The notes beneath the pieces were generated by a model. It was not told the DNA's origin. It was given only the letters and a program-made list of their open reading frames with translations, and ran no database searches. A stretch of 64,000 nucleotides of DNA from assembly GCA_026991555.1 (NCBI GenBank), contig JALXBI010000044.1, forward strand, positions 1,223 to 65,222, read 5' to 3'. The position numbers and the translations under genes are program-made. The stretch's first letter is position 1; the number at the start of each line of letters is the position of its first letter. This document shows positions 12,030 through 50,869 of this stretch, in pieces. This stretch comes from Candidatus Aminicenantes bacterium. Lineage in GTDB: Bacteria; Acidobacteriota; Aminicenantia; S016-38.

Positions 12030-12530
12030 ATGATTATAAAGGGAAGAGTATGGAAGTTTGGTGATGATATATCCACCGACCACATCGCCCCTGGAAGGTA
12101 TTTCCATTTAAGGACCAACCTGCCCGAGCTGGCAAAACATGTCCTTGAGGATGCCAGGGAAGACTTCGCCTCAAAGGTTCAGCCCGGGGACATAATAGTG
12201 GCCGGGAGAAATTTCGGGTTGGGCTCTTCCAGGGAACACGCCCCGAGAATCATAAAGCTCGCCGGGGTTGGATGCGTAATTGCCAAAAGCTTCGCCAGGA
12301 TTTTCTACAGGAATTCTATAAATGTGGGTCTGCCCTTGGTGGAGATAAAACAAACCGACGAGATAGACGAGGGGGACATCCTTGAGGTGGACCTGAGGAA
12401 GGGAATAGTGAAAAACATAACCAAGGGAAAGGAATACAAATTCGTTCCCATGCCGGAATTCATGCTCAAAATAATAGAGGAAGGGGGGATAGAGGAATAC
12501 ATAAAGAAATACGGAGATTACCAGCTTTAA
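12030..12530 (+). CDS. Aconitase-family hydro-lyase small subunit (LeuD/HACN small subunit), 166 aa
   Basis: LeuD-like swivel domain ([27 protein letters not shown]), directly after the large subunit. Confidence 0.8.
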
Positions 12531-18885: not shown

Positions 18886-18959
18886 GCTGAAATTATATAT
18901 GTTTTCCCCTCCTTTCCAAACTCCCATGAAATTGCTAAAATTATTTTCCTGGGTTGGGC

Positions 18960-19130
18960 AAAGGGAAGGTGGTGAAAAGCCACCGCTGCCCCCGCAGCTG
19001 TAACCGGGGACGAAACCCACAAAGGGCCACTGTCCTTACCCGAAAATTCGGGAGGATGGGAAGGCGTGGGGAGTAGGATGATCCGGGAGCCAGAAGACCT
19101 ACCAGCCCAGGCCTTCAGCTCCATCTTCGG
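18960..19130 (+). promoter_or_regulatory. Cobalamin (AdoCbl) riboswitch in the btuB leader
   Basis: All hallmark blocks are present in order: AAGGGAAGGUGGUGAAAAGCCACC, GCUGCCCCCGCAGCUGUAA, GGGCCACUG, GGGAAGGCG and the B12 box GAGCCAGAAGACCUACC. A GC hairpin (GGAGGGG...CCCCUCC) follows, then an AAAGGAGG RBS before the btuB ATG at 19186. Confidence 0.85.
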
Positions 19131-19185: not shown

Positions 19186-21006
19186 ATGAAAAAACTTCTG
19201 GTTCTGCTCCTTTTGGGATTCCTTTCCTTCGCAGGAGGGGTTAAAAAGGAGAAGAAGGAAAAAAGGGAGAAAATCCTCAGGGAAGAGATTGTAGTTGTAG
19301 CGGAAAAAACCCGGGTGCCCCTGCTTTCCTTAGCTAATTCGGTGGAACTTCTTACCTCCCGGGACCTCAGGAGGTTTCAATCCCAGGACCTTAAGGAAGC
19401 CATGTTTCTTCTTCCTTCCACCTACACCCCGTCCTACAACACCCACGGAATTGTGGCCTCTACCTTCGTCCGGGGCGTTTCCTCCTCCAGGGGACTTTTT
19501 TCCCTGGAAGGAATTCCCCTGCTGGACCCCAATACTTATACCTTGCCCTTAGACACCATCCCCGCATTCTTCCTCTCCTCTGTAGAAACTGTGATGGGAC
19601 CCCAATCCAGTCTGTGGGGGGAAGGGGCCATGGGGTTTGCCACGTTCATGTCCCTGGACACTGAGCCCACATCCTCTTTCCGGGTAATGGCCGGAGGTAT
19701 GTCCACCCTCTCCTTAGAGGGAAAGGTAGGCTTAAGAGAGAACAATCTCTCCATGAAGGCCGGCTACAGTTATTTCAACACTGCAGGGGTTACGGAAAAC
19801 AATCGCTACAAGAGGAATTCTGTCTATTTCTCCTCTTCCTATTCCCTTTCCGGGATAAACTTCAAGCCCTTCGTAATTTACACCAATCAGCTGGGTTACA
19901 TTCCCTTTATCATGAGGGGAGTTCCTGCAAAGGACAGAAGGGCCAGGGACAAATTATTCCTGGCTTCCATCCCTGTAGTTCTTAAATTCAAGAAAATTCG
20001 TTTAACTCTCTCTCCGTTCTATTTCCAAAAATCCTACACCTTTACTGACCCTAACGACCCATGGGGCTTTACTAATTCTTCCACAATGGTAAAGTCAAAG
20101 GGGATTTTCGCTCAGGGAGAGATTCCCTTAAAGGAGGGATTTAGCCTGGTCTCAGGGCTGACATGGAGAAGGGAAAATCTGGAGTCAAAGAACAATTTCA
20201 TGATAAATTACCTTAACTTAACCCCCTCATATCTGGATTCCTGGATAAACCTGATTTATCACAATAAAAAACTCTTCCTTTCAGCAGGAGGAGGTTATTC
20301 CAGCTCCTCCGGATACGGGGGGAAATTTTCTCCTAAAATCGCCGGGGCCCTGTGGCTGGGAAAAAGGGTAAAGGTGAGGGCCTCCTATTCCAAGGGCCTG
20401 CGGTTCCCATCCCCATCGGAAACCACGGGACCGTGGGGAAATCCGAACCTTCTGCCGGAGCAGAGTGAGGGTTATGAGGGGGGTCTGGACTTCATCCCCG
20501 TAAACGGGCTGCTCCTCTCTATAACCGGCTTCAATACAAGGTTTACTGACCTGATAACCTTTGATTTCCCTTCCTGGAAATTTGCCAATGTGGGAAAGGC
20601 TGAAATCAAAGGGCTGGAATTTAAGGCTTCCGGCTCTGTAGAAAACACCCTGTTTTCCCTGTCTGTCCTGAACCTCTCCGCCAGGGATCTTGTAAAGGAC
20701 CAGGAACTTCTTCGCCGTCCTAAATGGCTGGTGAAATTTCTCGTGAGCAAAAACATCGCAACAAGGGCGACCGTATCCCTTTTCTTCGTCTACGTGGGCG
20801 AAAGGAAGGATTTTGACGACCAGACATGGCAAACCGTGGAAAACCCGGCCTACTATCTCCTTAACCTATCGGCAAAATATTCTCTCTGGAAAGGCATGAA
20901 AATCTTCCTCCGGGCTGACAACCTCCTCGACAAAAAATACGAGGACATTTTCGGCTACCCCTCCCCGGGAAGAACTGTCTATTCTGGTCTTGAATTTAAT
21001 TTTTAA
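19186..21006 (+). CDS. btuB: TonB-dependent outer-membrane receptor, BtuB-like (cobalamin)
   Basis: Signal peptide, TonB box (EEIVVVAEK), plug and 22-strand barrel length (606 aa), and a C-terminal aromatic terminus (LEFNF). It sits downstream of the B12 riboswitch. Confidence 0.8.
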   Translation: MKKLLVLLLLGFLSFAGGVKKEKKEKREKILREEIVVVAEKTRVPLLSLANSVELLTSRDLRRFQSQDLKEAMFLLPSTYTPSYNTHGIVASTFVRGVSSSRGLFSLEGIPLLDPNTYTLPLDTIPAFFLSSVETVMGPQSSLWGEGAMGFATFMSLDTEPTSSFRVMAGGMSTLSLEGKVGLRENNLSMKAGYSYFNTAGVTENNRYKRNSVYFSSSYSLSGINFKPFVIYTNQLGYIPFIMRGVPAKDRRARDKLFLASIPVVLKFKKIRLTLSPFYFQKSYTFTDPNDPWGFTNSSTMVKSKGIFAQGEIPLKEGFSLVSGLTWRRENLESKNNFMINYLNLTPSYLDSWINLIYHNKKLFLSAGGGYSSSSGYGGKFSPKIAGALWLGKRVKVRASYSKGLRFPSPSETTGPWGNPNLLPEQSEGYEGGLDFIPVNGLLLSITGFNTRFTDLITFDFPSWKFANVGKAEIKGLEFKASGSVENTLFSLSVLNLSARDLVKDQELLRRPKWLVKFLVSKNIATRATVSLFFVYVGERKDFDDQTWQTVENPAYYLLNLSAKYSLWKGMKIFLRADNLLDKKYEDIFGYPSPGRTVYSGLEFNF

Positions 21007-21791
21007 TGTTAGAAGTTCAGGGCATAAGGCTTGAAATGGGAGGAAGGGAGATCCTTAGGGGGGTCTCCCTCTCCCTTCCCTCCCCTTCCCTTTATTGCCT
21101 TATGGGACCCAACGGGGCCGGAAAATCCCTCCTTCTTGAAATCATTGCCGGGCTGAGAAAACCAACCTCCGGGAGGGTGGTCTGGAAGGGGAAGTCAATT
21201 TTAGAACTTCCACCGGCAGAAAGGGCAAGGAAACTGGGCCTTCTCCCCCAGAGGAGCGAGTTTTTCTCCCCTTTTCCCGTGGAGGAGGTGGTAAAAACCG
21301 GATGTTTCGCCAAGCGGGAATGCGACGCAGAAAGGGCCATGCAGGAAGCTGGGGTTCTTCATTTACGCTCCAGAGAATTTACCTCCCTGAGCGAGGGGGA
21401 GAGGAAACTGGTCCTTATAGCTAAGGTTCTGGCCCAGGGGACGGAGCTCCTGCTTCTGGATGAGCCCGCCTCCAACCTTGACCTTTCCAATCAGGTTAAA
21501 ATATACAGCCTTCTTTCTAAGATATCCCGGGAAAAGACCATCCTCACCACGGAGCACAATATATTCCTTTCAGGATTCTGCCGGAAGATTTTCTTTATAA
21601 AAAAGGGAGAAATAATCGACCAGGGAAGAACAGAGGAGGTAATGAATGCGGAAAACATTGAAAGGGTTTACGGTGCTTCTCCTGGTTTCCTTCCTTTTTC
21701 CCTTAACCCTGAAGGATTCCTTGGGAAGGAAGCACGTATTAAAGCCCCCGGTAAGGAGGCTGGTTTCCCTTTCTCCGGCCATAACCGATGA
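21006..21791 (+). CDS. ABC transporter ATP-binding protein, FecE/BtuD-like
   Basis: Walker A GPNGAGKSL, signature LSEGERK and Walker B LLLLDEPAS. The low-complexity C-tail overlaps the next gene by 145 nt. Confidence 0.8.
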   Translation: MLEVQGIRLEMGGREILRGVSLSLPSPSLYCLMGPNGAGKSLLLEIIAGLRKPTSGRVVWKGKSILELPPAERARKLGLLPQRSEFFSPFPVEEVVKTGCFAKRECDAERAMQEAGVLHLRSREFTSLSEGERKLVLIAKVLAQGTELLLLDEPASNLDLSNQVKIYSLLSKISREKTILTTEHNIFLSGFCRKIFFIKKGEIIDQGRTEEVMNAENIERVYGASPGFLPFSLNPEGFLGKEARIKAPGKEAGFPFSGHNR

Positions 21792-22458
21792 CCTTGTGGC
21801 AATAGGAGCGGAAAAACTAATAGTGGGAACCACCAGTTTCTCCCATATAAAAGGGGCAAAAAAACTGGGTGGAATCATTAATCCCAATATTGAGATGATT
21901 TTAGCCCTCAAACCTGACCTGGTTTTAGTTATGCAACCAACTCCCCTGAAACTTGTCTGGCAACTTGAATCCCTGGGCCTTGAGGTTTTTCCCATAAGGG
22001 AGCCGAGAAATCTCAGGGAAATTGCAGAGGTGGTTTTCCTTCTGGGGAAAATAACCGCCAGGGAGGGAAAAGCGAAAGCTGTGGGCCAGGAATTTTTGGA
22101 TAAGGTAAAACCCCTTCCTGTAAAAAAGGGGAAAATTTTCATAGGTTTTCCTTCCCCTCCCTTCTGGGCCGCCTGCAGGGAAACCTTCCTTGATGACCTC
22201 GCCCGAAGGGCAGGCTGGGAAAATGTCTGCAGGGGAAAGGGATGGAAGCCCGTGAGCGGAGAGGAAATCTTAGCCTCCAGCCCTGACCTTCTGGTAATCC
22301 CGGCCACAAGCCCACAAGGACCCTGGATAAGAAAATTCCCCTGGAGGAAACTGGAATCGGTTAAAAAAGGGAGAGTTCTCGCCTTTCCCCCTGACCTTCT
22401 TCTCCGCCCCACAGTTTCCTTAGCAGAGGTTTTTGAAAAACTGGCAGAATACAGATGA
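21646..22458 (+). CDS. Periplasmic substrate-binding protein, BtuF/FecB family
   Basis: Signal peptide MRKTLKGFTVLLLVSFLFPL, then RRLVSLSPAITDDLVAIGA (compare BtuF RVITLSPANTE) and a class III SBP layout. Confidence 0.7.
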   Translation: MRKTLKGFTVLLLVSFLFPLTLKDSLGRKHVLKPPVRRLVSLSPAITDDLVAIGAEKLIVGTTSFSHIKGAKKLGGIINPNIEMILALKPDLVLVMQPTPLKLVWQLESLGLEVFPIREPRNLREIAEVVFLLGKITAREGKAKAVGQEFLDKVKPLPVKKGKIFIGFPSPPFWAACRETFLDDLARRAGWENVCRGKGWKPVSGEEILASSPDLLVIPATSPQGPWIRKFPWRKLESVKKGRVLAFPPDLLLRPTVSLAEVFEKLAEYR

Positions 22459-23351
22459 TCTGGTTGATTTTAATTTTGAGTTTTGCCGTTTATCTTCTTT
22501 CAGGACCTGGAACCCCCAGTTTCCCAATTTTAAGTTACCGTTTTTTCAGGGGAGTTTTCGCCCTTATCTCAGGGGCCTATCTTTCCGCCTCAGGGGTTCT
22601 CCTTCAGGCAGTTTTCAACAATCCATTGGTGGAGCCTTACATCCTGGGGGTTTCCGCCGGGGCATCCACAGGGGCCCTCTTGGCCATCTATTTTCTCGCC
22701 CTTTCTTCCCCCCTGTGGGTATCTGGCCTTTCGTTTCTTTCTGCAGTGGCCTGCGTGGGCCTTGTTTTTCTCATCTCGGTAAAACTACATCCCTCAAGGG
22801 AAACCCTGCTTCTTGTGGGGCTTTCCATGGGAGCCTTTTTAACCGCCATAAATTCAATAATAATGCTGATTAAAAGTCAGAACCCCACCTCTGATTTAGT
22901 ATTCTGGCTCCTTGGAAGCCTTTCAGGAATAAACCGGGAGGAAGTTCTAATACTTATCCTCGGGTTGCCTTTTCTCGTATTCTCATTATTCCTTCACCGG
23001 CGCCTGGACCTTCTCCTCTGGGGAAGGGAGGCCGAGGCCATGGGACTTGCCCTCTGGGAAACCAGGGCCCTGGTTCTTGTAATATCCACAGTGCTTGCTG
23101 CTATAGTGGTATCCGAGGCAGGGGTTATTGGGTTCGTGGGCCTAATTTCCCCTCACATAGCAAGGAGGCTCTGGGGTTATCCCCATAGGAAACTCCTCCC
23201 AGGGGCCTTGGGCATAGGTGCCTTAGTTCTGCTCCTTTCTGACCTTCTCTCCAGGGTTCTCCTTTCTCCCTGGGAACTCCCTGTAGGCCTTATAACTGCC
23301 CTTATTGGCGCCCCACTCTTCCTCTATTTGACCCTCAGGAAATTTCAATGA
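22455..23351 (+). CDS. ABC transporter permease, FecCD/BtuC family
   Basis: About nine TM helices with conserved FecCD glycine-rich segments (ILGVSAGASTGA; LITALIGAPLFLYL). Confidence 0.75.
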   Translation: MIWLILILSFAVYLLSGPGTPSFPILSYRFFRGVFALISGAYLSASGVLLQAVFNNPLVEPYILGVSAGASTGALLAIYFLALSSPLWVSGLSFLSAVACVGLVFLISVKLHPSRETLLLVGLSMGAFLTAINSIIMLIKSQNPTSDLVFWLLGSLSGINREEVLILILGLPFLVFSLFLHRRLDLLLWGREAEAMGLALWETRALVLVISTVLAAIVVSEAGVIGFVGLISPHIARRLWGYPHRKLLPGALGIGALVLLLSDLLSRVLLSPWELPVGLITALIGAPLFLYLTLRKFQ

Positions 23352-23435
23352 GCGGAAGGCTTCCCGATTTTGGTTCTTTTTCCATTCTGGTAAAATTGAA
23401 CTGGCAGGATGGCTTGGCTATAAGGGAGGAGAAAA

Positions 23436-24029
23436 ATGAGAAGGAAAATAATTATTCTGTTCATAGCCGCCATTGCTCTTTTTTGCAGGGAACTTCCCCC
23501 AGGCTACCGCTACACCCTCTCCTTAGGCTTGGCAGAAGAGTATTCCAGCGAGGATTCAAAGACCATCTACGACGACTGGCCAAAACCCATTTTCTCCTTC
23601 GGAATAGAAAAGAGGCGCTCGCCTAAAACCTCCTGGACTTTAGAAGCTGAGGCAAGGCCCTTCAGGATAAAGAGGGTAAGCTGTGAAAATCTTGAGCGTG
23701 GATTTGACGTTGACATAACGGAATATTTCTTTACCTATTCCTACAAGAGATTGATAAACATTTCAGGGATAAATTTTTATGCAAGGGGTTATGTGGGCTT
23801 GGCGTTTACTAACTTCTTTGAAAAGGACACGAGGATTCCCCCTCCCTCCGTGGCCCAAGACGAATACCTTAATATAGGCGCTCATGCAGGGGTTGGAATG
23901 GGGGTGGTGGTTTTAAGGGCCCCCTGGGAGATGAATTTTGAGGTTTTCGTAAGGTGGATAGCAACAGCCCTGCCAGATGGGTATGGGACTAATTTCTTCG
24001 GGGCAAAACTGGGATTTTCCTTCAGGTAA
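23436..24029 (+). CDS. Small secreted beta-barrel outer-membrane protein, copy A
   Basis: Signal peptide, alternating hydrophobic/aromatic beta-strand pattern, 197 aa, and a C-terminal ...KLGFSFR. It is 97% identical to 24688..25281. Confidence 0.45.
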   Translation: MRRKIIILFIAAIALFCRELPPGYRYTLSLGLAEEYSSEDSKTIYDDWPKPIFSFGIEKRRSPKTSWTLEAEARPFRIKRVSCENLERGFDVDITEYFFTYSYKRLINISGINFYARGYVGLAFTNFFEKDTRIPPPSVAQDEYLNIGAHAGVGMGVVVLRAPWEMNFEVFVRWIATALPDGYGTNFFGAKLGFSFR

Positions 24030-24035
24030 GGAGGG
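23436..24035 (+). repeat. Direct repeat unit 1 (about 600 bp, CDS-length) of a near-identical tandem duplication
   Basis: Nucleotide alignment by eye with 24688..25287 shows only scattered mismatches, while the flanking sequences are unrelated. Confidence 0.8.
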
Positions 24036-24076
24036 CGAAATTTCTTGGGATTAAAATAATATGAAGAGAGATAGAA

Positions 24077-24682
24077 ATGAAGGGAAGGTTTCTCCTTTTT
24101 GTGTTTATTTTTGTGATGATAGATATGGTTTTCGGGAAGAGTTTTTATGAGGTTTCGGCCGGGCTCTCTCAAACCTATACCTGGAGTTGTTGTGAAGGGA
24201 GATGGGGTCAGGCGCCTCTTCCATTTTTCTCCCTGGGAATAGGGAATGCCACAGAAAAGGACGGAATTTCTCTGCTATTTCAGGTCCAGCCTCTCCCTAT
24301 GAAAAACAGTATTCGCGATGGGGAATTCCAATTACCGGATGGAAGCATAAAAATAATAGACGAGGATTATAAGAGGACTTGCCTTCTCCTTGGCTCTTAC
24401 AGAACTCTTATCTTCTGGAAAGTTTTCTTGAGGCTCTATCTGGGAATATCCGAAGTTTTAGTCCACGGGTCTGTGAGCATAAAGGGGAAGGGAATAGTTC
24501 ACCAATACAACTCCGAGGAATTTGGAATCACAGCAGGAGGGGGATTAGCCTTCCCTATAGGAAGAAAATCCAAGACCTTTTTCTATACAGAGATTTTTGC
24601 CCTTCATACAGAAATCCTGAGTTTGGGAGAAAAAAGCTTTCCCCAGATTCTCCTGGGCATTAGAGTTTCTGCGGAATTTTAG
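24077..24682 (+). CDS. Small secreted beta-barrel outer-membrane protein, divergent paralog
   Basis: Signal peptide, similar size (201 aa) and beta-pattern, and a C-terminal aromatic ...VSAEF. It lies between the two near-identical copies. Confidence 0.4.
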   Translation: MKGRFLLFVFIFVMIDMVFGKSFYEVSAGLSQTYTWSCCEGRWGQAPLPFFSLGIGNATEKDGISLLFQVQPLPMKNSIRDGEFQLPDGSIKIIDEDYKRTCLLLGSYRTLIFWKVFLRLYLGISEVLVHGSVSIKGKGIVHQYNSEEFGITAGGGLAFPIGRKSKTFFYTEIFALHTEILSLGEKSFPQILLGIRVSAEF

Positions 24683-24687
24683 GAAAA

Positions 24688-25281
24688 ATGAGAAAGAAAA
24701 TAATTATTCTGTTCATAGGAGCCATTGCTCTTTTTTGCAGGGAACTTCCTCAGGGCTACCGCTACACCCTCTCCTTAGGCTTGGCAGAAGAGTATTCCAG
24801 CGAGGACTCAAAGACCATCTACGACGACTGGCCAAAACCCATTTTCTCCTTCGGAATAGAAAAGAGGCACTCGCCTAAAACCTCCTGGACTTTAGAAGCT
24901 GAGGCAAGGCCCTTCAGGATAAAGAGGGTAAGCTGTGAAAATCTTGAGCGTGGACTTGACGTTGACATAACGGAATATTTCTTTACCTATTCCTACAAGA
25001 GATTGATAAACATTTCAGGGATAAATTTTTACGCAAGGGGTTATGTGGGCTTGGCGTTTACCAACTTCTTTGAAAAGGACACGAGGATTCCCCCTCCCTC
25101 CGTGGCTCAAGACGAATACCTTAATATAGGCGCTCATGCAGGGATTGGAATGGGGGTGGTGGTTTTGAGGCCCCCCTGGGAGATGAATTTTGAGGTTTTC
25201 GTAAGGTGGATAGCAACAGCCCTGCCAGATGGGTATGGGACTAATTTCTTCGGGGCAAAACTGGGATTTTCCTTCAGGTAA
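24688..25281 (+). CDS. Small secreted beta-barrel outer-membrane protein, copy B
   Basis: Differs from copy A at about 6 of 197 residues. The nucleotide identity begins at the ATG and ends a few nt after the stop. Confidence 0.45.
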   Translation: MRKKIIILFIGAIALFCRELPQGYRYTLSLGLAEEYSSEDSKTIYDDWPKPIFSFGIEKRHSPKTSWTLEAEARPFRIKRVSCENLERGLDVDITEYFFTYSYKRLINISGINFYARGYVGLAFTNFFEKDTRIPPPSVAQDEYLNIGAHAGIGMGVVVLRPPWEMNFEVFVRWIATALPDGYGTNFFGAKLGFSFR

Positions 25282-25287
25282 GGCTAA
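24688..25287 (+). repeat. Direct repeat unit 2 of the tandem duplication
   Basis: See unit 1; the two units are 1252 bp apart. Confidence 0.8.
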
Positions 25288-25322
25288 TTTAAGTTTTTTG
25301 AACACCCCCTAATTCCTTACCC

Positions 25323-25754
25323 TCAGGAAATTTCAATGATTTCGTATTCGGTCTCAATGGGAACCGAACCTCTGAGCATGGCGGTCACAGGACAATACTT
25401 GTTCTGGGAAAGGTATATGGACCTTTCCACAGCATCCTTGGATATATTCTTTCCTTCAAACACGAATTTCAGTCTTATTTTTGTGTAAACCTTGGGATGC
25501 TCCTCTGCCCTCTCGCCTTCTGCCTCAACCCAGAAACCCCTAAGGTCCTGCCTTTTCTTTTTCATAATGGAAATAACATCCATGCCTGTGCAGGAAGCCA
25601 GGGAAATAAGAAGAAGTTCCATGGGCTGAGGCCCCTGATTCAAACCAGCAACATCGGGCATCTGGTCCACCACTATGGCATGCCCGCTTCCACTTCTTCC
25701 CACCATCTGCAGGCCCTCAACCATTTTTACTACTACTTTCTTTATCTCTGCCAT
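25323..25754 (-). CDS. OsmC/Ohr-family peroxiredoxin-like protein
   Basis: OsmC signature with two Cys (LLISLASCTGMDV ... NKYCPV). The start is set at MAEIKK, giving 143 aa; the ORF caller starts at 25847. Confidence 0.7.
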   Translation of the reverse strand: MAEIKKVVVKMVEGLQMVGRSGSGHAIVVDQMPDVAGLNQGPQPMELLLISLASCTGMDVISIMKKKRQDLRGFWVEAEGERAEEHPKVYTKIRLKFVFEGKNISKDAVERSIYLSQNKYCPVTAMLRGSVPIETEYEIIEIS

Positions 25755-50372: not shown

Positions 50373-50869
50373 GGGAGCCCCAGTTTTTTTCTCGTATAGG
50401 GAATCAGGCCCCCTGCCTGGAGGATTTCTCTGACCTTCTCGGGAAATGGGGGAAAGGAAAAGACCCCTGCCGGGGTTTTCACTTCGCCCCTTTCAAGGTC
50501 TATTTCCACCTGGTCTCCTTCCTTTACAGCTTCAACCGCTTCGGGAAGCTCAATGGCTGGAAGCCCGGCGTTAATGCAGTTCCTATAGTAAATCCTGGCA
50601 AAGGACTTGGCCACTATAGCGGAAATTCCAGCATATTTTAGTGCCAGCACTGCCTGTTCCCTGGAGGAGCCCATACCGAAATTCTTACCGGCGAAAATTA
50701 TGTCCCCGGGCTGAACTTTGTTTTTAAATTCCGGATCCAGGTCCTCCATGGCATGGGAGGCCATTTCCTCAGGACTTAGATTTTTGTAGGTGTATCTTCC
50801 GGGAAAAATTACATCGGTATTGATATCATCCCCGTATTTGATGACCTTACCCTTAAGCTTCATTTTCAC
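50369..50869 (-). CDS. LeuD-family (aconitase swivel) small subunit, orphan paralog
   Basis: GDDINTDVIFPGRY and GKNFGMGSSREQA motifs, paralogous to 12030..12530. No adjacent large subunit. Confidence 0.75.
   Translation of the reverse strand: MKMKLKGKVIKYGDDINTDVIFPGRYTYKNLSPEEMASHAMEDLDPEFKNKVQPGDIIFAGKNFGMGSSREQAVLALKYAGISAIVAKSFARIYYRNCINAGLPAIELPEAVEAVKEGDQVEIDLERGEVKTPAGVFSFPPFPEKVREILQAGGLIPYTRKKLGLP

Follow-up and report, generated by a model that had tools for sequence, protein, structure and literature searches.

A sequence-orphan cassette of predicted outer-membrane barrels behind a B12 importer in Candidatus Aminicenantes, with two gene copies probably homogenised by gene conversion

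We analysed a 64,000-nt stretch of DNA from Candidatus Aminicenantes bacterium (assembly GCA_026991555.1, contig JALXBI010000044.1, positions 1,223 to 65,222 of the forward strand), hereafter referred to as the window, and within it a cassette of three small genes located between the permease gene btuC of a B12 importer operon and a convergent gene of the OsmC family. All three genes, designated A, M and B, lie on the plus strand and encode predicted 8-stranded outer-membrane barrels. Gene A (23436..24029) and gene B (24688..25281) are two copies of what we refer to as the B-type, each of 197 amino acids (aa), and they enclose the M-type gene M (24077..24682, 201 aa), an old paralog of both with the C-terminus ...SAEF. 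Gene B starts 5 nt downstream of M. An earlier note on this DNA, made from the letters without database searches, had described three co-oriented open reading frames (ORFs) at these positions, the middle one being a divergent third paralog ending in ...AEF, and this layout was borne out.

Nucleotide alignment of A and B revealed 15 differences over 594 nt, corresponding to 97.5% identity. These differences fall in 13 codons, of which seven carry replacements (R3K, A11G, P22Q, R61H, F90L, V153I, A162P) and six are synonymous, and the Nei-Gojobori method (NG86) yielded a synonymous divergence (dS) of 0.064 and a nonsynonymous divergence (dN) of 0.015 (dN/dS 0.24). The identity of about 97% given in the earlier note was hence accurate, while its count of about six differing codons was too low. 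Self-BLAST and a repeat search delimited two plus-strand blocks of 601 nt at 23431..24031 and 24683..25283, again with 97.5% identity, which begin 5 nt upstream of the ATG (GAAAA) and end 2 nt downstream of the TAA. Within 60 nt beyond each edge the flanks of A and B are unrelated, so that the identity is limited to the coding sequence (CDS), as previously described. The GAAAA element also stands before the B-type genes of relatives. No further copy of A/B was detected by self-BLAST in the 64-kb window.

The A/B duplication is not an assembly artefact. All sequences available for comparison (numbered with the prefix L) are short-read metagenome assemblies or metagenome-assembled genomes (MAGs), and the order A-M-B recurs in several independent ones: on a 39-kb ENA scaffold (L001/L013/L025), in MAG GCA_027013365.1, where it is distributed over two contigs (L027 and L002/L016) broken inside M, on two short contigs (L032, L033) from a strain about 95% identical to the window, and on an 872-nt contig (L014) that holds M plus stubs of both copies. 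Unitig-style contigs from other runs end 30 nt past the last site that distinguishes A from B, namely at 23531 (L030, L031) and at 25254 or 25255 (L018, L021, L022), which are exactly the contig ends that a k=31 graph yields at a true repeat. The collapsed or expanded repeat that the earlier note had considered as a possible artefact is not what these assemblies contain, and the repeat explains why MAGs of this organism break at the A-M-B locus.

Beyond these strains, a word-indexed search of 5.8 billion (5.8e9) clusters returned three B-type and two M-type clusters, plus one more when a profile was used, and an exhaustive HMMER profile search of 1.84 billion (1.84e9) representatives returned four proteins, while pattern scans of GTDB species-representative genomes with the B-type and M-type alignments gave no match. 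The family currently comprises about ten distinct sequences, all from metagenomes. Orthologue dN/dS values of 0.20-0.27 indicate that A, M and B are genes under purifying selection. B-type and M-type genes adjoin in every context with enough sequence to judge. In the first context, btuBDFC-A-M-B followed by convergent osmC, they occur only in the species cluster of the window. In the second (L004/L005), the order is tRNA-M-B-5S/23S rRNA with no A copy, the proteins are 77-79% identical to those of the window, and the gap between M and B measures 8 nt in L004 against 5 nt in the window; the pair there (L004:341-3104) has a tRNA gene on one side and the 5S end of an rRNA operon on the other. The third context (L003/L009/L010) has a B-type gene divergent from an M-type gene, followed by nrdJ, the gene of a B12-dependent ribonucleotide reductase, 126 nt downstream of the M-type gene. 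This M-type gene is 57% identical to M, frameshifted in L003 (111-1455) and intact in L009 (160-1616). In the fourth (L006-L008), the order is secreted protein-B1-B2-M, with B1 and B2 50% identical to each other and each about 40-44% identical to A. The upstream secreted protein of this locus (L006:1-2789, also L007 and L008) has 201 aa and no family match, and is accompanied by the Cys-rich C-terminus of another protein. Although B1 and B2 of L006 share 50% protein identity, two patches of their genes retain 76-78% identity at the nucleotide level, perhaps as a result of partial conversion. Neither btu genes nor a cobalamin riboswitch were found in the second, third and fourth contexts.

The comparison between the window and the scaffold L001 bears on the history of the two copies. 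Both sequences are 99.956% identical over 20,594 nt with nine mismatches, eight of which are located in A or B (1,188 nt together; binomial P ~1e-9) and one in the binding-protein gene of the importer. All eight single-nucleotide polymorphisms (SNPs) within A or B exchange the nucleotide for the one present in the other paralog: in A of L001, sites 268, 345, 375, 420, 457, 480 and 484 are B-like and form one contiguous tract of at least 217 nt, while site 182 of B is A-like. Such swaps of paralog state between strains that are 99.96% identical point to gene conversion. The flanking sequences carry a further signal. The 84 nt upstream of A align ungapped and anchored at the ATG with the flank of the B-type gene in L003 (50/84 identical, P ~4e-10), and B, like its counterpart in L004, is preceded by the 3' end of M. 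From these alignments, A and B appear to hold two old positions with separate histories, and B would be translationally coupled to M, as in L004.

Synonymous divergence supports the same conclusion, as M-type and B-type genes order the relatives differently. For the M-type, the gene of the nrdJ locus is more distant from M (dS 1.09) than that of L004 (dS 0.52), and the ordering is reversed for the B-type, where the gene of the nrdJ locus differs from A/B by a dS of 0.19-0.23 and that of L004 by 0.67. Between the window and the strain represented by L032/L033, dS amounts to 0.03 for M and 0.16 for A. The paralogs A and B are thus more alike than would be predicted from the orthology of their positions, judged by flanks and neighbouring genes. 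In addition, all four combinations of the motifs in two predicted extracellular loops, L2 (SC or HW) and L3 (RIPPPSVAQDEY-type, i.e. PPPS-type, or (I/L)PSE-type), occur in the window, in an allele designated X, in L32_A and in L33_A, and the motif in loop L4 (PDGYG/R or GEDSYR) assorts independently of those in L2 and L3. Recurrent gene conversion would keep the coding sequences of A and B near-identical, which would also account for an identity that stops at the CDS borders, and the B-type genes of the population, including the one adjacent to nrdJ, would form a recombining mosaic. Given the paralog-swapped SNPs, the flanks, the discordant dS values and the mosaic alleles, we favour recurrent conversion among B-type copies over one recent duplication, the two options between which the earlier note had left the choice, and consider it likely that it homogenises A and B as members of a small B-type family that recombines.

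One contig bears on the question of copy number. In L026 (GCA_027037695.1, JALVZC010000160.1; 4982-5724), btuC is followed by a single B-type gene of 198 aa, allele X, and then by osmC, with no M. Allele X is A-like at its 5' sites and has W83 and a GEDSYR loop like L004; it is also found beside osmC in L020 and L023, both of which end at nt 9 of the gene. The contig may represent a deletion haplotype that arose by recombination between A and B, and it may equally be due to the assembler having jumped from one copy to the other at their common 3' end. The earlier suggestion that copy number may vary by recombination fits the single-gene arrangement of L026, although the jump is an equally possible source of it.

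An alternative view is that the duplicate is real but static and that all signs of exchange, including the swapped SNPs, the mosaic alleles and L026, are assembly chimeras, which we regard as unlikely. Many of the short-read contigs indeed break at the repeat edges, L026 joins the left flank of A to the right flank of B, a junction that a walk in the assembly graph via the 110-nt 3' end common to both copies could produce, and the MAG that contains L026 also contains L017, a contig with a different B 3' end. However, the converted tract of L001 is a single contiguous run of seven sites on a 39-kb scaffold, allele X was recovered in identical form in L026, L020 and L023, three assemblies that differ in sample and assembler, an A allele with the PSE-type L3 loop was found in two (L032, L033), and the dS discordance between loci is independent of phasing inside one repeat. 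Because the same alleles turn up with different samples and assemblers, and because the dS comparison between loci stands apart from phasing, a purely artefactual origin of swaps and mosaics is unlikely.

A simple, very recent duplication, after which the copies diverged independently without conversion, would agree with the low divergence of A and B (dS 0.06), with the occurrence of M-B alone in L004, where no A copy exists, and with the independent duplication of the B-type in L006 (B1/B2 50% identical). A young copy should, however, have brought homologous flanks with it, yet identity ends 5 nt and 2 nt from the CDS, and the homology of the flank of A to that of the L003 B-type and of the flank of B to that of L004 speaks for separate histories. 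Eight of nine inter-strain SNPs swapping paralog states and the discordance of dS between B-type genes and their M-type neighbours are likewise not expected from it, and we consider this explanation distinctly unlikely compared with the recurrent conversion favoured here.

The borders of the cassette suggest how it came to lie behind btuC. A perfect 21-nt direct repeat, ACCCTCAGGAAATTTCAATGA, brackets it: the left copy (23331..23351, plus strand) comprises the last six codons plus the stop of btuC (22455..23351), while the right copy (25319..25339, given for the plus strand) contains the last five codons plus the stop of the minus-strand osmC (25323..25754). This repeat has two matches in the window against zero expected, is present in all strain contigs and includes the 8-bp palindrome GAAATTTC. 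The bracketing repeat points to a secondary insertion of the cassette. Prior to it, btuC and osmC would have overlapped tail to tail by 17 nt; a promoter-A-M-B unit of about 1.97 kb would then have entered this overlap, with 21 bp duplicated on insertion so that both genes stayed intact. On these borders, we conclude that the cassette was probably inserted between the ends of btuC and osmC. No recombinase gene was found near the cassette, and no flanking direct repeats were found around the cassettes of L003, L004 and L006. The GC content of the cassette (44.8%) is about two standard deviations (sd) below the window mean (48.3%, sd 1.7% in 2-kb windows), a weak sign of foreign origin.

The spacer upstream of A seems to contribute its own promoter. 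An extended -10-like element, TGGTAAAAT (23388..23396, plus strand), is located 40-48 nt 5' of the ATG of A, within the flank homologous to that of L003, where it reads TGGTATAAT. A consensus promoter scan from btuC to A gave nothing, the -35 element being weak, and TGGTAAAAT emerged by comparison with L003 alone; the flank of A is nonetheless best described as conserved and promoter-like. Comparison of the A-M spacer and of the btuC-A spacer with the sequence 5' of M in L004 gave no match above shuffled sequences for either one. An ORF at 23348..23626 (92 aa), which has an ATGA overlap with the stop of btuC and crosses the first part of A in a different reading frame, is almost certainly spurious and was called as a gene only on the truncated contigs L030 and L031. 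At the other end of the cassette, an inverted repeat GGTAAGG...CCTTACC (25276-25330) spans the stops of B and osmC, with a minus-strand fold of -20.2 kcal/mol (z = -2.5), and may serve as a bidirectional terminator for the convergent B and osmC genes.

With respect to the encoded proteins, database searches did not place A, M or B in any named family. Pfam gave no match at E<=1 for the three proteins and no relevant match at E<=10 for the 11 members tested, NCBIfam models and a PDB sequence profile search returned nothing relevant for A, M, B or their relatives, and none of the named families tested (OMP_b-brl, OmpA_membrane, OmpW, Ail_Lom and Opacity of Pfam, and NCBIfam) produced a significant hidden Markov model (HMM) match. 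AlphaFold2 (AF2) predicted a closed antiparallel barrel of eight amphipathic strands for both the B-type and the M-type, preceded by an N-terminal helix (residues 2-16 and 2-18). By inspection, this N-terminus is signal-like, with a basic n-region (MRRK or MKGR) and a hydrophobic core of 12-14 residues, and the -1 position is taken by a small residue, C/S or G. Along the predicted strands, one side is hydrophobic/aromatic and the other, which holds the alternate residues, is enriched in R, E, K, D, T, S and Y. The inward face of the predicted barrels is polar and charged, which in these models would suggest a closed, salt-bridged interior and would set them with OmpA, OmpX and NspA, apart from OmpW with its hydrophobic channel. 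The M-type ends in ...G-I-R-V-S-A-E-F and thus with an aromatic residue, a classical C-terminus of outer-membrane proteins, and the distant B-types P0006 and P0007 carry short extra C-terminal tails. That the host has an outer membrane is indicated by a TonB-dependent receptor with plug and barrel domains in the same locus. No lipobox of the form [LVI][ASTVI][GAS]C is present. The corresponding sequence in A and B is A-L-F-C, where the -1 residue is Phe, and their signal-region Cys is not retained in P0003 (Ser) or in P0006 and P0007 (Gly/Ala); M has no Cys in this region. The expectation of small β-barrels without lipobox or recognisable named family, as raised in the earlier note, agrees with the structure prediction, the sequence inspection and the searches, and we consider it very probable that the three genes code for closed outer-membrane barrels of eight strands that belong to an orphan family.

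To map variation, six closely related B-type alleles were placed on the AF2 topology, with turns of 2-4 residues assigned to the periplasmic side by convention and the loops L1-L4 to the opposite side. Twenty-six of the 34 variable residues are located in the predicted extracellular parts, i.e. at the tip of the β5-L3-β6 hairpin (127-150), in L2 (82, 83, 90) and in L4 (179-184), while L1 and most membrane strands of the B-type are invariant among the six alleles. On this model, the pattern resembles that commonly seen in surface proteins subject to diversifying pressure, for example from phage, predators or adhesion targets. The M-type shows the opposite of the usual outer-membrane-protein pattern. 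Across homologues of 44-79% identity, its most conserved segments are two loops predicted to be extracellular, L1 (TYTWSCCEGRW, which includes a Cys-Cys pair; M residues 33-43, window 24170-24200) and L2 (RDGEFQLPDG..DEDYKR, acidic; M residues 80-98, window 24310-24370), and these loops may constitute an extracellular interaction, cation- or ligand-binding site. A tentative proposal, for which we would not quite claim even odds, is that the three are surface-exposed, loop-displaying structural or adhesin/receptor-type proteins in which the M-type acts as an obligate partner or co-factor; the locus would then provide the B-type in double dose relative to the M-type.

The location of the cassette raises the question of a link to B12. 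The importer operon is headed by a cobalamin riboswitch outside the cassette (18938..19120, plus strand; full-length match to Rfam RF00174 with 112.6 bits against a gathering score of 31.5) and continues on the same strand with genes assigned by Pfam and NCBIfam: a TonB-dependent receptor (19186..21006; the best NCBIfam model is BtuB, with a score under its cutoff), an ABC ATPase (21006..21791), a periplasmic binding protein and the FecCD/BtuC permease introduced above as btuC. The longest ORF of the binding protein (21646..22458) overlaps the ATPase gene by 146 nt (21646-21795); gene callers on related contigs, among them L027, place its start at about 21796 (220 aa), which is probably the true one. 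The osmC gene, the right boundary of the cassette, was assigned by Pfam PF02566 and gene calls. The same window self-comparison that was used for A and B also returned two segments of about 70 nt (12172-12241 and 50652-50720) that are inverted, 84-85% identical and unrelated to A-M-B. The co-orientation of the cassette with a riboswitch-controlled importer cluster, as previously noted, was confirmed, and so was its proximity, with a measured btuC-to-A spacer of 84 nt instead of 85 nt.

From this arrangement it could be argued that the three proteins assist corrinoid uptake as accessory components in the outer membrane, their genes being transcribed together with btuBDFC under control of the cobalamin riboswitch. 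The genes are indeed co-oriented with the importer and follow btuC without an intervening terminator, the M-type of a second context precedes nrdJ, and two M-type loops, L1 and L2, are acidic and show unusual conservation. Against this stand the restriction of btu linkage to one species cluster, the lack of B12 genes in L004 and L006 and of a riboswitch at the other loci, the conserved promoter-like flank of A itself, the bracketing 21-nt duplication of the btuC/osmC ends with its indication of secondary insertion, and a charged barrel interior that speaks against a channel; moreover, the known surface accessories BtuG and BtuH are lipoproteins with different folds. We therefore consider such a role improbable. 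Still lower do we rate the variant that the M/B pair is a new surface module for corrinoid capture or another B12-linked function that was recruited behind btuBDFC. Its evidence consists of the position beside btu and nrdJ together with the conserved M loops; if it were true, the conserved acidic M-type loops (TYTWSCC.., RDGE..PDG..DEDY) would form the binding site. As the cassette appears to have been inserted between the ends of btuC and osmC, its position behind the B12 importer is most likely incidental, a by-product of the insertion. That A, M and B are not membrane proteins at all, being instead soluble periplasmic or secreted 8-stranded barrels of the YceI, lipocalin or avidin kind, is hardly credible to us.

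Taken together, we assign a probability of roughly 0.6 to the account as a whole, in which an orphan barrel cassette, its A and B copies undergoing conversion, was inserted next to the importer, with an incidental B12 position. Several points weigh against it. Two of the four contexts lie beside B12-related genes (the btu operon and nrdJ), and no terminator-like hairpin was found between btuC and A, so that riboswitch control by read-through is possible beside A's own promoter. An empty btuC/osmC site was not found by exact-protein look-ups of BtuC and OsmC, each contig retrieved either carrying the cassette or breaking at it. The AF2 alignments held 6-9 sequences only and yielded moderate confidence, with pLDDT (predicted local distance difference test) values of 50-60 in the loops, and the B-type C-terminus (...G-F-S-F-R) has a penultimate Phe and no terminal aromatic residue. 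With a repeat that is 97% identical, phasing errors of the assembler could account for part of the swapped SNPs and mosaic alleles, and what ties the nrdJ-type locus to A-M-B-type contigs is co-occurrence at the level of samples (ERZ27262679, ERZ23491094). Finally, the functional role is drawn from fold and variation pattern only.

Under the account of a converting orphan cassette, A, M and B add a sequence-orphan family to the fold class of 8-stranded outer-membrane barrels and provide a clean natural case of concerted evolution between tandem surface-protein genes, with tracts visible between 99.96%-identical strains. They also call for caution in annotation, as position alone is no ground for calling A-M-B B12-related. 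The practical value is modest: fold, conversion mechanism and loop-focused variation are already well known, while the sequence family is new.

Among known systems, NspA and Opa of Neisseria are likewise 8-stranded outer-membrane barrels, and Opa forms a multi-locus family. A, M and B lack sequence similarity to them (no Pfam Opacity or OMP_b-brl match), and their region has no pentamer repeat tract for phase variation, with no tandem repeats detected in 23300-25400. There are two to three copies here compared with about 11 for Opa, an obligatory divergent M-type partner adjoins each B-type gene, and the host, in contrast to Neisseria, is an environmental bacterium known from metagenomes only. 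Relative to the OmpA N-terminal domain, OprF-N, OmpX and Ail, structural alignments showed 7-16% identity, and neither a C-terminal peptidoglycan-binding domain nor an HMM match is present. TtoA of Thermus thermophilus (PDB 3dzm) and OmpW/AlkL show no sequence relationship to the family; OmpW and AlkL have a hydrophobic lateral channel, whereas the inward residues of A, M and B are charged or polar. BtuG and BtuH of Bacteroides, surface B12-binding lipoproteins of other folds with conserved btuB linkage, resemble the cassette as extra outer-membrane-associated genes beside btuB, but A, M and B have no lipobox and their btu linkage is not conserved.

Loop mosaicism in the style of Opa or Hom is a familiar mechanism, and the closest parallels to the history of A and B are offered by tufA/tufB of Salmonella and E. 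coli and by the hom/bab paralogs of Helicobacter, in which concerted evolution maintains CDS-limited near-identity between unrelated flanks. As in these systems, near-identity of A and B is confined to the CDS and non-reciprocal exchange is visible between strains. In contrast to them, A and B are only 1.25 kb apart, in direct orientation and flanking a third paralog, so that deletion of M would be an expected by-product of their exchange, of which L026 is a possible example.

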